Shown piece after piece: positions 15,823 through 36,600 of a DNA stretch of 64,000 bases. Position 1 is the first letter of the stretch, and each line of letters begins with the position of its first letter. The DNA is from Candidatus Melainabacteria bacterium 17Bon1m (GTDB taxonomy: Bacteria; Cyanobacteriota; Vampirovibrionia; Obscuribacterales; Obscuribacteraceae). The DNA is taken from NCBI GenBank assembly GCA_032128875.1, contig JAVLKG010000002.1, forward strand, positions 160,001 through 224,000. Reading direction: 5' to 3'. The position numbers and the translations under genes are program-made. The notes beneath the pieces are model-generated. The model was not told the origin of the DNA, made no database searches, and worked only from the letters and a program-made list of their open reading frames with translations.

Positions 15823-17187
15823 TTATCGAGGCGGGTAGAAAACGAGCCATGAGCCGACGGTGACGGCTAGGTGCAGAGCGAGCAGGCTGAGGGTCGCCCA
15901 CTTGCCGAACTTGTCACCCAGGCGGTAGAAGCCGGCAATGAGCATCGCGTCTATCGGGACAATCGACGGGAAAAGATATCGTCCGTGTGGACCCGTGACT
16001 TTGAGAAGTGTGGCGGTTATCATCGCCGCAAGATTCAAAAGGGGACAAAGAAGAAAGAGAAGCCAGATCATTTTCTCTACATCAATCTTCGATGTCTTCT
16101 TAGTTTCATCAAAACCATCCGCGTTGTCGGCTGCTGCATCTGCTGACGTTCTTGCGGCGGGAGTCGCCTTACCTTTTACGAGACCGGTCCAACCGACGAT
16201 GGCTGCGATTACATAAATCAGATAGGCAATATACGTCGGGCGGTAAATGTACCGTGTCATGTACCCAAAGAGACCGAAGAAGTCGAAAAACACATAGCGC
16301 CACCAGCCGAATTGATGCACCTCAGGCCAGGGGTGCACAATGACGCCGTTTTTTCTCGGAAGAATTTTCGACCAGCTCTCGTACATCGTGCGCGAGCCGA
16401 GAATGTCGCCTGAAAATTCGAAGTAATTGCGGACGAACCACCAGCCGCACGTGCCGGTAAAAACCGCAGCTGCCGCCGCAATTTTTTTGATTGCTGATGC
16501 CGCGGATTCGCCGCGCCCGAATGTTGCTGCTATAACTCCCAGACCGAGCGCTGGCACGATGCTGAGTCCAGTGTGTTTGGAAAGCGCCAACCATCCAAGC
16601 AGAAAGCCTAACGCAATGGAGGCTTTCATAGTCAGTCCGCGTTTGATTGCGCAAACTACTAGATAGATGGAGATGCTCGCCAAAGATACAGTGGTGGCAT
16701 CTGTGTTCGTATAACTTTGGGTGAAAACAAGCTGAGGGTGCAGCACTATAAGCAGTGGCAACGCTAAAGACCGGAGCAAGCAACCAGCAAAAATTTCTTT
16801 ACCGATGAGAAACGCGGCGATGAGCGTTGGTATCCCAGCAAGCACGCTGCCTATGCGAGAAAACGTAGGCATAGTGGTCTCGCTTGCGAAGAGCGAGCAC
16901 AGAACGTTCGGCAAATAGCCGAATTGTGGAAGCGAACCGTACTCAGCGGCACCACCAGCGGAAAAAACTTCATGAGCAGATGGTAAACGCAGATGAGTCG
17001 TCAGAAAGTGGGAAACCCAAAAATGGTTGCCTTCATCTGGTGCTTCGGAAATGGGTAGCGTAAATACCCACGGCAGCCGCAGCAACAAGTACAGCATGAT
17101 GAAAATTGCTAGCTGAACTTTCGAGTTATGCCAGAGGCTCGAAGGAGCCGCCGCATTCTCTAGGGTTTCAGCTGTTCTTTCCGTCAT
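15823..17187 (-). CDS. GT-C fold polytopic glycosyltransferase (GT39/ArnT/DUF2142-like)
   Basis: Multiple TMs, EAPDEGNHFWV acidic loop after TM1, WWFVRNY, C-terminal GRYLFP. Confidence 0.8.
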   Translation of the reverse strand: MTERTAETLENAAAPSSLWHNSKVQLAIFIMLYLLLRLPWVFTLPISEAPDEGNHFWVSHFLTTHLRLPSAHEVFSAGGAAEYGSLPQFGYLPNVLCSLFASETTMPTFSRIGSVLAGIPTLIAAFLIGKEIFAGCLLRSLALPLLIVLHPQLVFTQSYTNTDATTVSLASISIYLVVCAIKRGLTMKASIALGFLLGWLALSKHTGLSIVPALGLGVIAATFGRGESAASAIKKIAAAAAVFTGTCGWWFVRNYFEFSGDILGSRTMYESWSKILPRKNGVIVHPWPEVHQFGWWRYVFFDFFGLFGYMTRYIYRPTYIAYLIYVIAAIVGWTGLVKGKATPAARTSADAAADNADGFDETKKTSKIDVEKMIWLLFLLCPLLNLAAMITATLLKVTGPHGRYLFPSIVPIDAMLIAGFYRLGDKFGKWATLSLLALHLAVTVGSWLVFYPPR

Positions 17188-29127: not shown

Positions 29128-29437
29128 TTAATGGTCGGAGCCATATGCCGGAAAGAAACCAATAAATCCATTCAAACCCGTCTAGAGCTAATCAGACCTA
29201 TCCAAATCCATTCAAACCAAGTTCTATCCAGGTTGAAGTGTAAAATTCAAGTTTCTCCGCAATATCCAGCATAGCTCACCCGACAGGAAGGCGGATCTAT
29301 TAATGAACTTGCCGGGCAAGATCGCTACATTTCTATGTAGGTCTCCGGGTAATAGCGCATCTACTTGTTAACTGGTTGTCGGGTAGCTGCGCCGAATTCC
29401 TTGACCTATCACTGCAACTTACTGGAAACTCTGAAAT

Positions 29438-30004
29438 ATGCGACGCCGTCCCCCTCAAATCATTGCCATCTGCGGTGGCTCCGGCTCCGGCAAATCCACC
29501 CTGGCGCGCAAGTTCGTCGGCGCGGCTGTGCTGGCAACCGACAGCTTCTATAAGGATATTGACGATTTAAAGCCCCGAGAGGACGGTACTTTCGATTTCG
29601 ACCACCCAGACGCTGTAGATTTGGACGAGTGCGCCGACGCGTGCATTAAACTTGCCGATGGCGAGGACATTATGATTCCGGTGTACGAGATGCGCAGCGC
29701 TAAGCGAGTTGGTCAGCAGATGGTGCCGGCTCCAACGAATTCTATTGTTGTGATTGAAGGCATTTACGCTTTCCACAATCCGCTGCACGAAATCGCGACG
29801 CTTCGTATCTTTATAGATACTCCAATCGATCAGCGCATGGCTCGCAGACTGCGTCGGGACGTAGAACGCGGGCGATCGACTCTAGAGTCGATTCAGTATA
29901 GTCTGCACGTTGAGGAAGCTTATTCGCGTTACGTTGAGCCAATGAGACATCTTGCCGACCTTATTTTGATGGGTGAAGAGATGCGAGGCAGTTTTTCGCT
30001 GTAG
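29438..30004 (+). CDS. udk: Uridine kinase
   Basis: IAICGGSGSGKST, DSFYK, FDHPDA, VIEGI, RRLRRDVERGR. Confidence 0.85.
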   Translation: MRRRPPQIIAICGGSGSGKSTLARKFVGAAVLATDSFYKDIDDLKPREDGTFDFDHPDAVDLDECADACIKLADGEDIMIPVYEMRSAKRVGQQMVPAPTNSIVVIEGIYAFHNPLHEIATLRIFIDTPIDQRMARRLRRDVERGRSTLESIQYSLHVEEAYSRYVEPMRHLADLILMGEEMRGSFSL

Positions 30005-30133
30005 CTCACCGCAATTCGCTGCAATACGCTGCAAGTCAGTGAAATCCGCGAGCAGTCCACTTAAATCTGCTGCAGTAATTAGTTAAGGACACTGGTGTCG
30101 TCGCCATTTTGAGGGGAAACAGAGGCTTTTATC

Positions 30134-31450
30134 GTGCAACTGAAGAAGCTTGATAATGCTCTGATTCTGATCTTCATTCTAGCCGCGCTTCTAGTGAGAG
30201 TGCCCTTTCTCTTCATCGTGCCCATGGTTGAGGCGCCCGATGAATATGCTCACTTCTGGGTTACAAAATTTTTGAGTGAAAACTTCACCGCGCCGGACGC
30301 CGCGCAGGTTGCGGCGGGCGGTCCATCTGCCGTTTATGGCTCACTGCCGCCTTTTGCTTACCTTCCACATGTGCTCTTTTCGCACTTAATTCCGGGTGTC
30401 GATATCTCCTTTTCCGAACGCATCGGTAGCATCCTTGGTGGACTCGTTACAGTCTTTGCTGCGTGTCGCATAAGCGCATTGCTGTTTGCCTCTAATCGTG
30501 CTCTTCGTCTTGCGCTTCCTCTGTGCGTTGTCCTGCATCCTCAATTTGGCTTCGTCAATGCATATTGCAATAGTGACTCTACCGCGTGTGCTTTTGCTTC
30601 GCTTTTGATTTGGACGAGCCTCGTGGTGATCTTTCGTGGACCTGAATTGCGATACGCCGCATTTGCCGGAATCTTGTGCGCTTTTATCGCTTTGAGCAAG
30701 TTTTCGGCATTGGCGATTGTGCCAGTCATTTTCTTTGCAATAATCGCATCGTGTTGGATCTATAAAAAGAACGCCGTGCAGACGGTCGCTTCTTTGGGTT
30801 TGACAGCCCTCACTGCGGCACTCATTTGTGTGCCCTGGTTTGCCCGCAATGCTGCCGTCTTTCATGGTGACTGGTTGGGCACCATCACCATGCGCGACAC
30901 CTGGGCCAAAACGTTTAATCGCTCGATTGAGCCTGTTAGTTTATCGTCGGTACTAAAACAAAAGGTATGGTGGCAACAATTATTTTGCAGCTTTTGGGCT
31001 GTCTTTGGATATCAAAAACACTATCTGCCAGCCGGTTTTTACCTCGCCTACCTTTCTATGATTCTCATTTCTAGCGCCGGCACTTTCACACAAATTTCAC
31101 AAGCAGTTCGCGCGAGATCAATTTCCTTTGATTTCCTGAGACGCCTTAGAGAAGGTGATGATGTGAGGTTGAAACATCAAGCGGCCTGGCTCAGCTTGTG
31201 GGTTTGCGTCGCATTTAGTTGTGCAGGACTTCTCTATGCTGCAGTGCAAAATCTAGGTGGTCCGCAAGGTCGATATCTGTTTCCCAGCGAAATTGCATTC
31301 ATGGCAATTATCCTTTCTGGACTTTATGAAGTTAATCAGAAGTGGGGCACACGGCTGGTCTTTGCTTTCATCGGTCTTAATGGAGTGACACTCATTTATT
31401 CTATGATTTTGCTTTACTCTATGTTCGGCGTGCGCATAAAGCCCTATTGA
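30134..31450 (+). CDS. GT-C fold glycosyltransferase, paralogue of 15823-17187
   Basis: EAPDEYAHFWV, YGSLPPFAYLP, LHPQ, WFARN, GPQGRYLFPS. Confidence 0.8.
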   Translation: MQLKKLDNALILIFILAALLVRVPFLFIVPMVEAPDEYAHFWVTKFLSENFTAPDAAQVAAGGPSAVYGSLPPFAYLPHVLFSHLIPGVDISFSERIGSILGGLVTVFAACRISALLFASNRALRLALPLCVVLHPQFGFVNAYCNSDSTACAFASLLIWTSLVVIFRGPELRYAAFAGILCAFIALSKFSALAIVPVIFFAIIASCWIYKKNAVQTVASLGLTALTAALICVPWFARNAAVFHGDWLGTITMRDTWAKTFNRSIEPVSLSSVLKQKVWWQQLFCSFWAVFGYQKHYLPAGFYLAYLSMILISSAGTFTQISQAVRARSISFDFLRRLREGDDVRLKHQAAWLSLWVCVAFSCAGLLYAAVQNLGGPQGRYLFPSEIAFMAIILSGLYEVNQKWGTRLVFAFIGLNGVTLIYSMILLYSMFGVRIKPY

Positions 31451-31486
31451 ACTTCACCTTGATTACACGAAAAACACACAATTTTG

Positions 31487-31861
31487 TCACGCAAATCTAA
31501 GGTACCGGCCGCATTTGCGTGGGAATGCTTCTGATAGAAGAAAAAAATCGATAGTGGAGGAACGTGTGATTCCTAAGGCTAGAACCTCTGGAAGGTTTGC
31601 CACCTTGAGTGCGGTCGCCTGCCGCTGGCAAGGAACCGCTAAGTAATCGGTTGGTTTGCGGCAGTACTCTGCCATCATCCACGGTGAGTGCGAGGCTCAT
31701 TTAGGATTGGATAAGGTCAAAGCAGATCAGACTAGACCTTAGCAGACCAACCGATCAATTTTCAGAAAAGAAACTCTACTGAAGCTGTGGGCAAGTGCCG
31801 AGTGTCGGGTTTCCCCCGAACGAACGCCGAGGAGCCGTACGCGGCTCTTCGGTGCCTTTTT
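31487..31861 (+). ncRNA. Candidate structured non-coding RNA (family not recognised)
   Basis: Dense nested stems, including 14-bp ATCGGTTGGTTTGC/GCAGACCAACCGAT enclosing three hairpins. Wobble pairs are G-U on the + strand. Ends in a terminator and lies between convergent genes. Confidence 0.55.
31826..31861 (+). terminator. Rho-independent terminator
   Basis: GCCGAGGAGCCG-TACG-CGGCTCTTCGGT hairpin followed by GCCTTTTT. Confidence 0.7.
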
Positions 31862-31864
31862 ACC

Positions 31865-32076
31865 TGCTGGCGTTGGGGCCTGCTGGCGTGGGGGCTTGCT
31901 GGCGTGGGGGCTTGCTGGCGTGGGGGCGCGTTGCACGCGCCCGATTTTTTTATGGTCGCGTGCAACGCGACCCCACGATATTATTTAGGTCGCATGAATG
32001 CGACCCCACGATATTATTTAGGTCGCATGAATGCGACCACACGATATTATTTAGGTCGCATGCAATGCGACCACAT
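31865..32076. repeat. REP doublet flanked by 16-bp and 33-bp tandem arrays
   Basis: TGCTGGCGTGGGGGCT-like x3 leads into a REP at 31919-31942. Inverted REPs GGTCGCRTG(C)AAYGCGACC start at 31954, 31988, 32021 and 32054, with an identical ACGATATTATTTA linker. Confidence 0.88.
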
Positions 32077-32080
32077 GCTT

Positions 32081-33568
32081 TTACTTCTCTAAGTTCAAAT
32101 CTGTGCGCAGCTTGCGAGGGTTTTGCCAGCCCATTTCATCGATAGCTGTGTCGAAATCGACGCGGCTTCGGCAGCAGTAGTTGAGCACGATAATCGCTTG
32201 TTCAAGCTTCATCAAAGTGGCTTCAATGAGCGGTCTTACGATGTGCGCTGCTTCGAAGGTATTCTTGTCGAACTTGCCTGCTGAAACCAAAATGTCGACG
32301 ATATCTCCGCCGTGTTTCCTCAGCACGGTCTGTGCTGTTTGAATATCAGTATCCGTAATAATTCCGGCTTGCTTGAGCAAATCGAACGCATTGCGGATCT
32401 TTTGAATTTCTTCGGGAGACTTCTGCCCTTTCTTCAGAGGTGCTGCCGGCTTGTCCGTTTCGCCTGCTGGAGCGCTGGCAGCTGGAGTCGGTGCAGCAGA
32501 TTTCTGTGGTGGCGCCGGTGGTGCGTTCTTCGCTTTGTCTCGCATTTTTTCCAGCACATCGCCAGTCAAATAATTGTCGATTCTCGAGCCTTCGCCGTGA
32601 AAACGTTCAAGCGCAGCCGGCGCGATTTCCGGGTCGATCTTCCCGTCATCAACCATCCCTTGAATTTTGAGCGCGGCTTCCAATGTTGTCTGTTTAATCA
32701 AATGCGCGTTGAGCAGCAGCGTGCCCAGATCCAGGGTCTGAGTCTTCGAAATCAAACTCATGTCGATACGCTTGAAGACGCCACTGTCGCCAAGCAAAGG
32801 AGTCATGGCGGTCTGAGCCGGAGGCGGCGCTGCCGGCGCAGGAGCGGGCACAGGCGGTGCGGGAACTGGAGCCGGAGCCATAGGAGCCATCGGCATTCCT
32901 GGCGCCATGCCTGGCTGCATCCAGGCGTTAGGATCGCCGGGCATTCCAGGCATACCTGGCATCATGCCTGGCATTCCGGGATACATTTGCTGAGGCATGG
33001 GCGGATAACCTGGCATCGGCGGTGGCGGATAACCAGGCATGGGAGGCGGATACATCTGCCCTGGCATGCCATAACCGGGCGGCGGATACCCACCGTAAGG
33101 GTTGTTGTACGCGGGCATCGTGCCCTGAGTAAAGTCTGAGCCGCCCGGAACCGGCGGGGGCGGCGCATAGGCCGGACCCGGAGGCGGGGTGACTTCAATC
33201 TTGTGGCTCTCTTTCGCCTTCAAAGAATCAGGAATTTTTGCGCCATCGGCATCAACAGCCGCCATGGCCGCCATGTCATACAAAAGTTGCAAGTCCGCCG
33301 ACCCGAAAGGCTTACTCCAGTGCATTTTCGAGTCTTCGCCCGACTGCTCATAGAGTGACCAAACCGGCAAATCCGCGCCATCTTCCCACTGGCAAGTGAG
33401 GGTGAACATCTGCCCCGGCTTCTTCGTCCGCCAAGGGACTTCAATCAGGCACCCGCGGCGGGTCTTGGACTCCGTGTACGCGAGGTCGATCATATGATAC
33501 GGGGGCAACTGGCTCTGAATGTCCAGTCTAAGACGATTTCCTGTCTTGGGTGGTGGTTGAGATTGCAT
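32081..33568 (-). CDS. Hypothetical protein with a Pro/Met/Gly-rich region and MshEN-like repeats
   Basis: LGTLLLNAHLIKQTTLEAALKIQ and LLKQAGIITDTDIQTA resemble MshEN/GspE-N motifs; PGMPGM region. Confidence 0.75.
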   Translation of the reverse strand: MQSQPPPKTGNRLRLDIQSQLPPYHMIDLAYTESKTRRGCLIEVPWRTKKPGQMFTLTCQWEDGADLPVWSLYEQSGEDSKMHWSKPFGSADLQLLYDMAAMAAVDADGAKIPDSLKAKESHKIEVTPPPGPAYAPPPPVPGGSDFTQGTMPAYNNPYGGYPPPGYGMPGQMYPPPMPGYPPPPMPGYPPMPQQMYPGMPGMMPGMPGMPGDPNAWMQPGMAPGMPMAPMAPAPVPAPPVPAPAPAAPPPAQTAMTPLLGDSGVFKRIDMSLISKTQTLDLGTLLLNAHLIKQTTLEAALKIQGMVDDGKIDPEIAPAALERFHGEGSRIDNYLTGDVLEKMRDKAKNAPPAPPQKSAAPTPAASAPAGETDKPAAPLKKGQKSPEEIQKIRNAFDLLKQAGIITDTDIQTAQTVLRKHGGDIVDILVSAGKFDKNTFEAAHIVRPLIEATLMKLEQAIIVLNYCCRSRVDFDTAIDEMGWQNPRKLRTDLNLEK

Positions 33569-33615
33569 AGGATTCTCTAGGACTTACTTTTTTCTATATG
33601 CCCTGTAGGTTTTGA

Positions 33616-36600
33616 TTATGACATTAGCTGTAACTTCGATGTGCCATTCATTTTCGTTATCTGAATGTGCGCTGGAAACATCTCCTTAATGTCGCTCATG
33701 TGGGTGATCACGAGGATGCGAGCAAAATCGTTTTGTATTGATTGAATTGCTTTTACCAGACGGTCGCGGCTGACCTCGTCCTGAGACCCGAAGCCTTCGT
33801 CGATTATCAGGGTCTCCAGCTTAGCGCCAGACCGGCGGGCGAGCAATCTGGACAGCGCAACGCGGACCGCGAAATTTACCTTAAAAGCCTCGCCGCCACT
33901 ATAAAGTTCGTAACTTCTGGTCCCCACCTCGTCAGCAATCATCAAATCGAGCGTCTCTACCATCGAGCCGGATTTTGTCTTTTGCTGGGTGACGAGAGCT
34001 ACGTGCATTCTGTTATCGGACAGTCTCGACAAAATTCGGTTAGCATCGCTTTCGATTTCGGGCACGGCGTTCTCGATGATGACCGCCTGGATACCCTTGC
34101 GTCCAAACGATTCCGAAAGGAAAAGGTAGTCATCGATATCTGCGTCGAGATCCTTAAGCTCTCGCCGGCGATCTTTCATTTGCGCAATTTCGTTGTTCAA
34201 TGTGTCCAAACGCGACTGTGAAATGGCGCAGCGGTTGGAGACCTGTTCTTTCTCTTTGCGCAGTGCTTCCAGCTCAGGCTTTATTGACTCCATCGCTTCG
34301 ATGCTATCAGGCAGTTTTTCCACCTGCTGTTGAAACGCAATCAGAGATGATTTAGCGTCTTCTAACTGAGTTTGCTTGGCTGCTTTCAAAGTCAAACACT
34401 CATCCAGGCTCTTCTTCAATTCAGGCTTATCTTCAAGTGCGCGCTTCAGCTCTCTGACCTGTTCAAGCGCTGGAGCTAATTCTTCCAATTCTTTGCGCAT
34501 CTGCAAGTGTTCGTCACGGTTATACTTCAGCTCTTCAAGCTTTTCTTTGACTCCTTTGAGCGCTTCGCGAGCCTCTGTGCCATATGTTTCGCCTTGCAAT
34601 TCGGCGTTTAATTTGGACAATTCTTCCTGACGCTGAGGCAGCTCGATGTCGAGTTCTTTGAGGTCTGCAAGGTCGCGCTTCATTTGGTTGAAACGCGATT
34701 CAATGTGCCGTTGAGCACGAACTTGCCCTTTCAAACTCGAATACGAAATGGGGTCGAAATCAAGCTTGTGAATCTCGGCTTTGACTGCGATGAGCGACTC
34801 TCTTTCTACTTGCGCATAGTCGCCGTCCGCCAATTGTTTTTTCAAAATTTCTAGTTCGTTTTTCACTGATTGGAAATTCTGAGCCGCTCGCTCAACTGCT
34901 GTGCGTCTCTCGTTGAGCTGACCAATTCGTTTGTCCAACTCTTTGCGATTTTCGAGTTGTTTTTTCAATTCGAGATATTTCTTGCGCAAGTCGCTCCGCT
35001 CTCCTTCGAGCTTTCCTTTGCGGCTTTTTGTCTCGGCGATTTCGCTGTCGATGTCTTCGTTTTGTTTTAAATACCTGGTGATCACAGCTTTGCGATCGAC
35101 AATTGGAGCGCAACACAAGGGACAAACAGAGCTGTGCTCGTGCTCTTCCAGCTCTTTGATTTTGTCTAGATTTTCTTTCTGGCGTCCCACCAAAACAGTT
35201 ACATGCGCATCCAAAGATTCAATCTCAGACTTGATTTCCAAGCCGCGCTGTTCAACTATGTCGAATTCAGCTTCCAGCGCATCGAGATTGTGCGATTCTT
35301 TTTCAATGGCATGGTGCTGCTCGTCGAGACTTTCTTTGCTGGTCAAAATTGATGCAAGTTCGGCCTCTTGCGATTCCTTTTGAGAAACCTTTGCTTCCAA
35401 TCGAATCTTCTCTTCAGTCATCTGAGAATTCAATTCGGCAGCTCTTTCGTTCAGCCTGGTATGCGCTTCTTGATTCTTCGATTGCTCTGCTTCTTTCTGC
35501 GACAGCTCCCGAAATTCGTCGAATTGCTTTTGAACCTTTTCCCAATCTTGAGTTTCTGTGCTCAATTTTTTATGACGCTTTTCGAGCTCTTTTAGTCTGC
35601 TCTCAACATTCTCAACCTGGAGTTCAAGGCGGCTTCTCAATTGTGCAAGCGTGGATTGCAAGTCCATGCGTTTTGTCGTCAGCTCCTGCTGAATCAGCGC
35701 TTTCTGCTCCATCTCCGTAAGCCCGGCTTTGAGCTTTTCGTACTTGGTCGCCTTCTCTTCAATTAGCGGTGAGTCGCTGACGAGTTTTGCAATTGCATCG
35801 AGCTTGTTTGTGAGAGTGACGGATTGCTCCTCGAGATTGGCAACAGCAGCAGTCAATTCTTCAATCTGTGTCTCAGTCAGCTCCATTTTTTGTTTGTTGA
35901 GCGTGAGCGATTGAATTTGCTCGTTCAGCTTTTGCGCAGATTCTTCTTGCGCGCTCAATTTTTCCGTCAAGGCTTCGAATTCGCCTTTCGCCTGCAGCAA
36001 GTCAGCATCCGCTTGCGCTAGTTCAGCCTCCGCCTCAGGCAAACGCGAGAGAGACATCTCCATCGCTTCTCGTTTGACTTTCAGCGCGCGTGCATGATCG
36101 CGCGATTGCTCTTTGAGTTTTTCAAAGTATGACAGTCCCAGAATTTCTCCGAGAACCTGCTTCCTGTCGGACGCTGCGCGCGTCGTAAATTCGTCTGCCT
36201 TTCCTTGCCGCAGGTAGGCGCTGTTGATGAAGGTGTCATAGTCCATGCGCAGAAGTTCGTTGATGTGCTTCTGCGTATCCTTCATCGTGTTGCCGGTCAG
36301 ACTGCGCCAGACGTCGTTTTCTCCGGGCAAGGAAGCGAGGACGTATCTGCGTCCATTACCGTTGCCGTGTCCGTTGCTCTCGCTATGTCCGTTGCCTTCG
36401 CCATGTCCGTGTTCTTTGCTATCTCCGGGGTCGTCGCTACTGCCACTGATGTGCGAATCATCATACTGAGCGGTATCCCCTTCACCGGCGCGGTTGAGAA
36501 TCTGAAATTCCAAGTTGCCTTTGGACGTTGTCTTCCCTCCCGACTTGCCGCCGCCCTTCATGCGTTGTCGTCGCACACGATAGGTGCGGTTTTCGTGCAA

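Follow-up and report, generated by a model that had tools for sequence, protein, structure and literature searches.

A candidate structured RNA derived from a TadG-like VWA gene and restricted to one genus of Obscuribacteraceae

The spacer between two convergent genes of Candidatus Melainabacteria bacterium 17Bon1m appears to hold a real, selected RNA structure of the plus strand, restricted to one genus and derived from a TadG-like VWA gene. The preferred reading, to which a probability of about 0.65 was assigned, is that the spacer carries the relic of a gene cluster, and that a plus-strand fold of the VWA gene, a near-invariant stretch and an intrinsic terminator were kept by selection after the cluster was lost. 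All coordinates refer to the window, the whole stretch of 64,000 nucleotides that was analysed.

The region, its fold and the parental gene cluster

The two genes that flank the region, 30134..31450 (plus strand, 438 aa) and 32081..33568 (minus strand, 495 aa), point towards each other, the arrangement described in an initial annotation of this DNA. The features found between them are listed below in the order in which they occur.

31455..31530, plus: block 3′ of the stop codon of the 438-aa gene; it holds the hairpin 31487-31522, with no T-run after it
31487-31496 with 31513-31522, plus: hairpin, read from the sequence
31556..31569, plus: putative remnant of a translation start (ribosome-binding site and GTG) that belonged to the first gene in the lost cluster, with TGA directly next to it
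31558-31562 with 31570-31574, plus: stem, read from the sequence
31570..31610, plus: upstream portion of the VWA-gene relic, with the hairpin 31577-31601; aligns to the DGQ-motif region of the intact VWA gene
31583-31587 with 31593-31597, plus: hairpin nested in 31577-79/31599-601, read from the sequence
31611..31639, plus: P1, nested hairpin of the conserved core
31644..31646, plus: in-frame stop TAA at the position of a Tyr codon of the ancestral VWA gene
31646-31659 with 31742-31755, plus: P2, 14-bp stem closing the junction (13 Watson-Crick pairs and one U-G)
31660-31673, plus: hairpin P3, inside P2
31677-31707, plus: hairpin P4, inside P2
31712-31741, plus: hairpin P5, inside P2; an insertion specific to genomes G000 (that of the window) and G011
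31806-31820, plus: small hairpin
31813..31826, plus: 14-nt near-invariant stretch directly 5′ of the terminator
31825..31860, plus: intrinsic terminator with a G+C-rich stem of 13 bp, a 4-nt loop and a T-run (hairpin 31825-31854, 9 of the 13 pairs G-C)

The stems of the initial annotation were all located by a direct check of the window sequence, at or within a few bases of where they had been placed, and the minimum free energy fold of 31487-31861 recovers them. The T-tract terminator that closed its list proved real, with 13 pairs at 31825-31854 followed by the T-run. Two of its elements had to be redrawn. The GCGG-type hairpin is present but starts at 31611 rather than at 31604, and the four-way junction is found in G000 and its nearest relative G011, while in the other six orthologs the junction is three-way, the hairpin 31712-31741 being an insertion specific to the G000/G011 lineage. 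Folding was compared with dinucleotide shuffles (n = 100), as had been suggested. The plus strand of 31487-31861 yielded -145.5 kcal/mol, the shuffles a mean of -117.5 (sd 5.4); this corresponds to a z-score of -5.18, and 0 of the 100 shuffles folded as well. The minus strand was likewise stable (z = -5.93), so that energy or z-score alone cannot choose the strand.

The block at 31455-31530 is present as a single copy in G000 and was recognisable in all 11 genomes that have an ortholog of the 438-aa gene, including those that lack the relic, although only partly in G002 and G004. Compensation in the stem of its hairpin (31487-31522), judged by eye, is only partial. The block could be the 3′ end of the mRNA of the upstream gene, or else the promoter or leader of the lost cluster.

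The parental cluster was recognised in two relatives. In G005 and G010 the same 438-aa gene is followed by three genes, of 195, 607/627 and 194/173 aa, the second of which encodes a protein with Pfam VWA and TadE/G-like domains. The cluster of G010 is flanked by the same convergent 495-aa gene; for G005, whose retrieved locus contains no 495-aa gene, only the upstream flank was confirmed. In these two genomes, 2.3 kb separate the match to the 5′ part of the region from the match to its middle. The segment 31556-31569 aligns with the leader and start of their 195-aa gene, as well as with the longer relics of G007 and G008, and 31611-31694, when translated, gives a 28-residue peptide that shares 64% identity with residues 514-541 of the VWA protein. 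The Tyr codon that is TAC in the intact genes of G005 and G010 reads TAA in G000 and G011, and TAG in G007 and G003; shortly past this stop, a 1-nt deletion is common to all six relics. The VWA reading frame of the window is thus interrupted by the TAA at 31644-31646 and by the deletion, and more than 500 codons are missing, which makes the locus a relic and not a gene. The terminator module showed a weak, non-significant similarity to codons 63-83 of the third gene of the cluster. From these alignments, 31451-31860 is read as what remains of a three-gene Tad-like cluster (genes of 195, ~610 and ~190 aa, the second of them the TadG-like VWA gene), which would formerly have separated the gene of the 438-aa membrane protein from its convergent 495-aa neighbour. 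The region had been called an orphan, a description that no longer fits a decayed cluster whose core is a fragment of a VWA gene. As a side observation, the GTG-TGA at 31556-31569 forms a one-codon 'start-stop' left by the first gene of the cluster.

A P1-type hairpin and the long stem P2 were also found in G005 and G010, where they lie within the intact coding sequence. The two VWA proteins are 88% identical, and overall synonymous codon identity between their genes is 0.50. Among identical residues, codons were identical at 33 of 38 positions in the core and at 226 of 478 elsewhere (P = 1e-6); for four-fold sites, the values were 19 of 20 in the core and 100 of 256 elsewhere (P = 6e-7). Of all 35-codon windows along the gene, the best is the one at the core. 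The fold of the intact orthologs had z-scores of -4.1 and -4.2. Seven paralogs from the genus share the local protein motif, and their equivalent 117 nt folded no better than shuffles (z = -1.1 to +1.6); the same was true of 10 homologs, ~50% identical, that belong to other genera of the family (z = -1.1 to +1.4). Since paralogs and homologs have the motif without the fold, the protein sequence does not by itself bring the fold about. These results indicate that the fold predates the death of the gene: codons ~513-551 of the VWA gene would have carried it on the plus strand while still coding, in the form of a hairpin and, after it, a long stem that closes a two-hairpin junction. After deletion of the cluster and breakage of the frame, selection would have retained the fold, together with the near-invariant stretch and the intrinsic terminator.

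The predicted transcription unit and its 3′ end

A terminator scan placed an intrinsic (Rho-independent) terminator at 31825-31860 and found no T-tract terminator between 31451 and 31824. A simple scan for sigma-70-like promoters on the plus strand of 31300-32200 returned none. As the 438-aa gene upstream is also encoded on the plus strand, with no T-tract terminator in between, the element could be the tail of its mRNA and may thus be a 3′-UTR-borne or 3′-UTR-derived sRNA, a point overlooked in the initial annotation when a stand-alone RNA was proposed. A 5′ leader or riboswitch had been ruled out in the initial annotation, and rightly so, given that the next gene, 32081..33568, lies on the opposite strand and that the terminator closes the unit at 31860. 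Three observations favour read-through from the 438-aa gene: no T-tract terminator precedes 31825, the promoter scan was empty, and the block 31455-31530 can be recognised in all 11 genomes with that gene. The RNA may accordingly be made as the tail of the transcript of the 438-aa gene, ending at 31855-31860, a route whose chances are put slightly below even; its production from the leader region of the old cluster, with the same end, is regarded as a good deal more doubtful.

Three sequencing runs labelled as RNA-Seq (X2-X4) contain the region, with contigs of up to 148 kb. Over 29300-33700, the pieces from these runs had the same lengths (6563 and 17973) as those of DNA run X1 from the same sample. 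Contigs so like those of DNA make X2-X4 uninformative on transcription. Runs X2 and X3 gave a separate contig of ~1 kb (30889-31910), absent from X4 and X1, at 1.6 times the depth of its neighbours, contig depth being unfit as a measure of expression.

The stretch directly before the terminator was strongly conserved. In all five aligned relics, including that of G006, 13 of the 14 positions of 31813-31826 are identical (the last base is A in G011), and a pattern search found the stretch exact in G008 too. It occurs once at the locus in each of the six relic genomes. Additional matches consisted of a second exact copy near a contig end in G006 and one 1-mismatch match elsewhere in each of G007 and G008. 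The second matches to the stretch and to the terminator that lie close to the ends of contigs, at G006:C290:5258-5271 and G008:C81:1-37, probably continue broken contigs of the same locus and would not be extra copies. The terminator hairpin is kept in five relic genomes, with two pairs changed on both sides. Further upstream, the junction stretch 31669-31695 is invariant.

A near-invariant stretch placed directly 5′ of a conserved terminator is typical of sRNA architecture. The region might thus encode a stand-alone, trans-acting sRNA that is transcribed from its own promoter and pairs with its targets through 31813-31826 as a seed, and both the near-identity of that stretch in the five aligned relics and the retention of the old leader region upstream would suit such an RNA. 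Nevertheless, the plus-strand promoter expected of it did not appear in the simple scan, and the same-strand gene upstream is separated from it by no T-tract terminator. When the 13 genomes were searched with up to one mismatch for the complement of the invariant P4 stretch and for 31813-31826, no conserved complementary site was found and the counts were within the range of chance; one recurrent match sits deep within a long ORF. A model built on the seed would moreover leave the large structured core unexplained. This reading is therefore considered unlikely, while still the strongest of the rivals.

A second possibility, judged distinctly improbable, is that the element is a purely cis-acting 3′ end of the mRNA of the 438-aa gene, serving only for stabilisation or 3′-end formation. 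The element immediately follows this gene on the same strand, with no terminator before 31825, and the block that follows the stop codon is recognisable wherever the gene is present among the 11 genomes. For such a task, however, the terminator hairpin alone would suffice. The core was already constrained when it lay 2.4 kb downstream, within another gene, and three species have no core at all. The invariant unpaired positions 31674-31695 and the near-invariant 31813-31826 also speak against a merely stabilising hairpin and suggest that something is specifically recognised.

On the preferred reading of a selected cluster relic, the invariant 31669-31695 and the seed-like 31813-31826 would together form a recognition platform for a protein or RNA partner, and this partner would originally have acted on the mRNA of the cluster. 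The RNA might then have a regulatory or decoy role that goes back to the control circuit of the parental gene; by analogy with known mRNA-derived RNAs (see below) this is offered tentatively, as a proposal with odds clearly against it.

Pairing and selection in the relic

Eight orthologous sequences were aligned under the guidance of a covariance model. Standard pairs occupied 90.7% of 300 cells, and 7 of the 38 pairs had changed on both sides (compensatory changes), a value reached by 2 of 500 shuffles; when the 3′ partner was slid by 1-3 columns as a control, only 25-49% of cells were paired. These pair counts were taken from an alignment fitted to the structure of the model, which favours that structure, and the sample consists of eight related, non-independent sequences from one genus; they are supportive but not decisive. 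In G007 and G008, all 38 pairs were standard. P2 was 91% paired in the eight orthologs, with 4 of its 14 pairs changed on both sides, and in P1 the outer helix was 96.9% and the inner helix 89.6% paired, its loop being free to vary. In G000 and G011 an insertion of ~40 nt, the hairpin 31712-31741, displaced the old 3′ arm of P2; a new 3′ arm and matching changes in the 5′ arm restore the 14 pairs. All eight orthologous cores folded better than shuffles (z = -2.2 to -5.6).

The choice of strand can be made from the wobble pairs, on which the initial annotation had already relied. Across the modelled pairs of the eight orthologs, read on the plus strand, 26 cells were G-U or U-G and 7 were A-C or C-A, so that the G-U pairs noted in the window hold for the orthologs as well. 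The energy of the plus strand was lower than that of the minus strand in 8 of 8 orthologous cores. Both results indicate that it is the plus strand that is selected for pairing, and the conserved terminator lies on this strand as well.

Conservation of the core was compared with that of adjacent coding sequence. Over 82 unambiguously aligned columns, core identity was 0.72-0.88 among the closest relics (G000, G007, G003 and G008) and 0.52-0.60 to the divergent G006. In the adjacent 438-aa gene, identity at four-fold sites was 0.31-0.50 between species (0.35-0.50 for the pairs among G000, G007, G003 and G008), and 0.75 for the close pair G000/G011; the four-fold sites of this gene are near saturation between these species. 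Within the core, 13 of 52 paired columns and 17 of 30 unpaired ones were variable (Fisher P = 0.004), i.e. loops change and stems do not. Outside the core, the relic differs between species by large insertions and deletions. The comparison shows purifying selection on the relic.

The same figures bear on the idea that the region is neutral pseudogene debris, in which chance inverted repeats of an old coding sequence await decay. The region is certainly the relic of a gene, three species have deleted it entirely, and the covariation is drawn from eight related sequences, all of which would be expected of debris. Neutral decay, however, would hardly leave the core at 0.72-0.88 among the five closest relic species (0.52-0.60 to G006) next to four-fold sites near saturation (0.31-0.50), nor would it spare the core while other parts of the relic accumulate large insertions and deletions, or let loops vary and stems stand still. 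The compensatory changes, the G-U excess on one strand and the scarcity of synonymous change across the fold where the gene is intact are no easier to reconcile with it, and debris is held to be very unlikely.

Still less probable is an element acting at the level of DNA, either an inverted repeat bound by a protein or a hairpin site in single-stranded DNA. A long inverted repeat is indeed present and both strands fold well, but the arms are ~60-80 nt apart with nested hairpins between them, the pairs favour one strand (G-T 26, A-C 7), a conserved same-strand terminator follows, and the element is single-copy with no recombinase or replication genes beside it.

Variable columns in the five closest relics were distributed over the codon positions as 8/28, 11/27 and 11/27, with no three-base periodicity, and a search of all six relics found no frame that is open and conserved throughout; hence the constraint is not protein-coding. 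A small protein, such as those of the 63- or 67-aa ORFs that do exist on the minus strand (31487..31678 and 31497..31700), where G000 and G007 keep an open frame across the core, is the least credible alternative of all, given substitutions without periodicity, the lack of a frame open and conserved in the six relics (G006 is at background score) and the extension of both ORFs into the indel-rich part of the relic.

Distribution, history and known systems

Searches of Rfam 15 at gathering thresholds gave no matches in the whole window or in five orthologous loci, in line with the earlier failure to assign the element to a known family. In E-value mode, nothing within 31451-31860 scored better than E = 1, and the cleaner relic of G007 gave no match at E <= 1; the only lower values came from microRNA-precursor models on the palindromic repeats at 31918-31978. 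ARAGORN found no tRNA or tmRNA genes in 31300-32200. The element resembles the structured RNAs in Rfam (riboswitches, RNase P, tmRNA, 6S RNA, cyanobacterial motifs) in size, multi-stem architecture and possession of a terminator, but differs from them in that no family reaches E = 1 on the core, whether that of the window or that of its G007 ortholog. A literature search, which was not exhaustive, returned only the general concept and no description of this element.

The region is single-copy in its own genome. By BLAST, as had been proposed, it was found in 7 of the 12 other genomes of the genus and in 0 of 28 genomes outside it. The covariance model, built from five orthologs, gave exactly one match per genome, always at the same locus, in 8 of the 13 genus genomes, and no matches in the 91 other genomes of the family or in three further genomes of the order (104 genomes for the family and 107 for the order in total). 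A pattern scan of metagenomes returned at least 119 stretches; among the 80 loci listed, on which the model was run, there was one true match, with a score equal to that of G007. The suggestion that the region is an orphaned mobile-element RNA can be set aside, the element being single-copy, at the same locus in eight genomes, and without mobile-element genes beside it. Specific candidates of this kind (a MITE, a group II intron, a retron or an IS-derived guide RNA) were rejected on the same basis; there is one copy per genome, and the neighbours are a kinase-like gene, a membrane protein and the 495-aa gene.

The 11 genomes (of the 13 in the genus) that have an ortholog of the 438-aa gene show the locus in four states.

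Intact cluster: G005, G010
Relic with core: G000, G011, G007, G003, G008, G006
Third-gene fragment only: G002
Bare spacer of ~135 nt: G009, G004

Both flanking genes are kept in G002, G009 and G004, and the core is wholly lost, so that it must be dispensable in these species. The copy in G006 is degraded in P3 and P4. In a tree of the 438-aa protein, G000, G011, G007, G003 and G008 are split from the rest and G006 adjoins the split; the branch to the outgroup is very long. A single origin of the relic in the ancestor of the six relic species would be compatible with this tree, the root of which is unsettled. The 1-nt deletion common to the relics favours a single origin as well, whereas the differing stop codons of G006 leave some doubt about it.

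An ncRNA born from a protein-coding gene is of a known kind. OxyS is described as having evolved from a fragment of a peroxidase mRNA (Krieger et al. 2022, PMC8825220). The likeness is twofold: in some lineages a protein gene at a fixed locus has given way to a short non-coding piece of its mRNA, and relatives with the intact gene reveal the origin (PMC8825220). Here too, an apparently selected non-coding remnant was found where relatives keep the intact gene. Compared with what that source relates of OxyS, the present candidate RNA is larger and more structured, its host is cyanobacterial, and its fold was already under synonymous constraint inside the intact gene. SroC, a sponge or decoy RNA derived from the gltIJKL mRNA (PMC4474525), is likewise a functional RNA carved from the body of a polycistronic mRNA, and could serve as a working model for the ancestral state in G005 and G010. 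The resemblance has the status of a model. According to Raghavan et al. 2015 (PMC4350180), new sRNAs arise in rearranged intergenic regions through point mutations that create a promoter. The cases agree in that a deletion or rearrangement makes a new intergenic region that hosts a lineage-specific RNA (PMC4350180), and differ in that here a pre-existing structured segment would have been retained. Two aspects are new: the synonymous-site footprint of a fold in a gene that is still intact, and the survival side by side, in a single genus, of the intact, relic and lost states.

The origin of new bacterial ncRNAs is an open question; that they can come from protein-coding genes is a recent proposal, exemplified by OxyS. 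This genus seems to present the whole series, from the fold in a working gene (two species) through a constrained relic (six) to loss (three), which makes the transition from coding to non-coding directly testable in it. A scenario with about an even chance is that the fold evolved under synonymous selection in the pilus-type TadG/VWA gene and became an autonomous ncRNA gene after deletion of the operon, in which case the function of the RNA would both predate and outlive that of the protein gene. The outcome is a new candidate structured RNA of ~150 nt with an invariant junction sequence, and the case suggests that 'pseudogene debris' between convergent genes can conceal selected RNA elements.

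Some minor observations concern the neighbourhood. The 438-aa protein, a polytopic membrane protein, has a paralog (34% identical) encoded at 15835-17112 on the minus strand, and neither of these two copies had a Pfam or NCBIfam match. The 495-aa gene (32081-33568, minus strand) belongs to no Pfam family, and shows an NCBIfam MshE-type cyclic-di-GMP-binding motif below threshold (32.9 bits, cut-off 38). Between the terminator and this gene there are two tandem arrays, 31863-31927 (16 nt x 4.1) and 31942-32072 (33 nt x 3.9), and each 33-nt unit of the latter holds a palindromic hairpin. The array units are multi-copy in the genome, the summed contig depth being 58-640 over the two covering bins (127-640 in the first) and 14-104 beside them; all four assemblies break at the arrays (31863-32072). 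In G002 and G006, the same spacer carries different tandem arrays.
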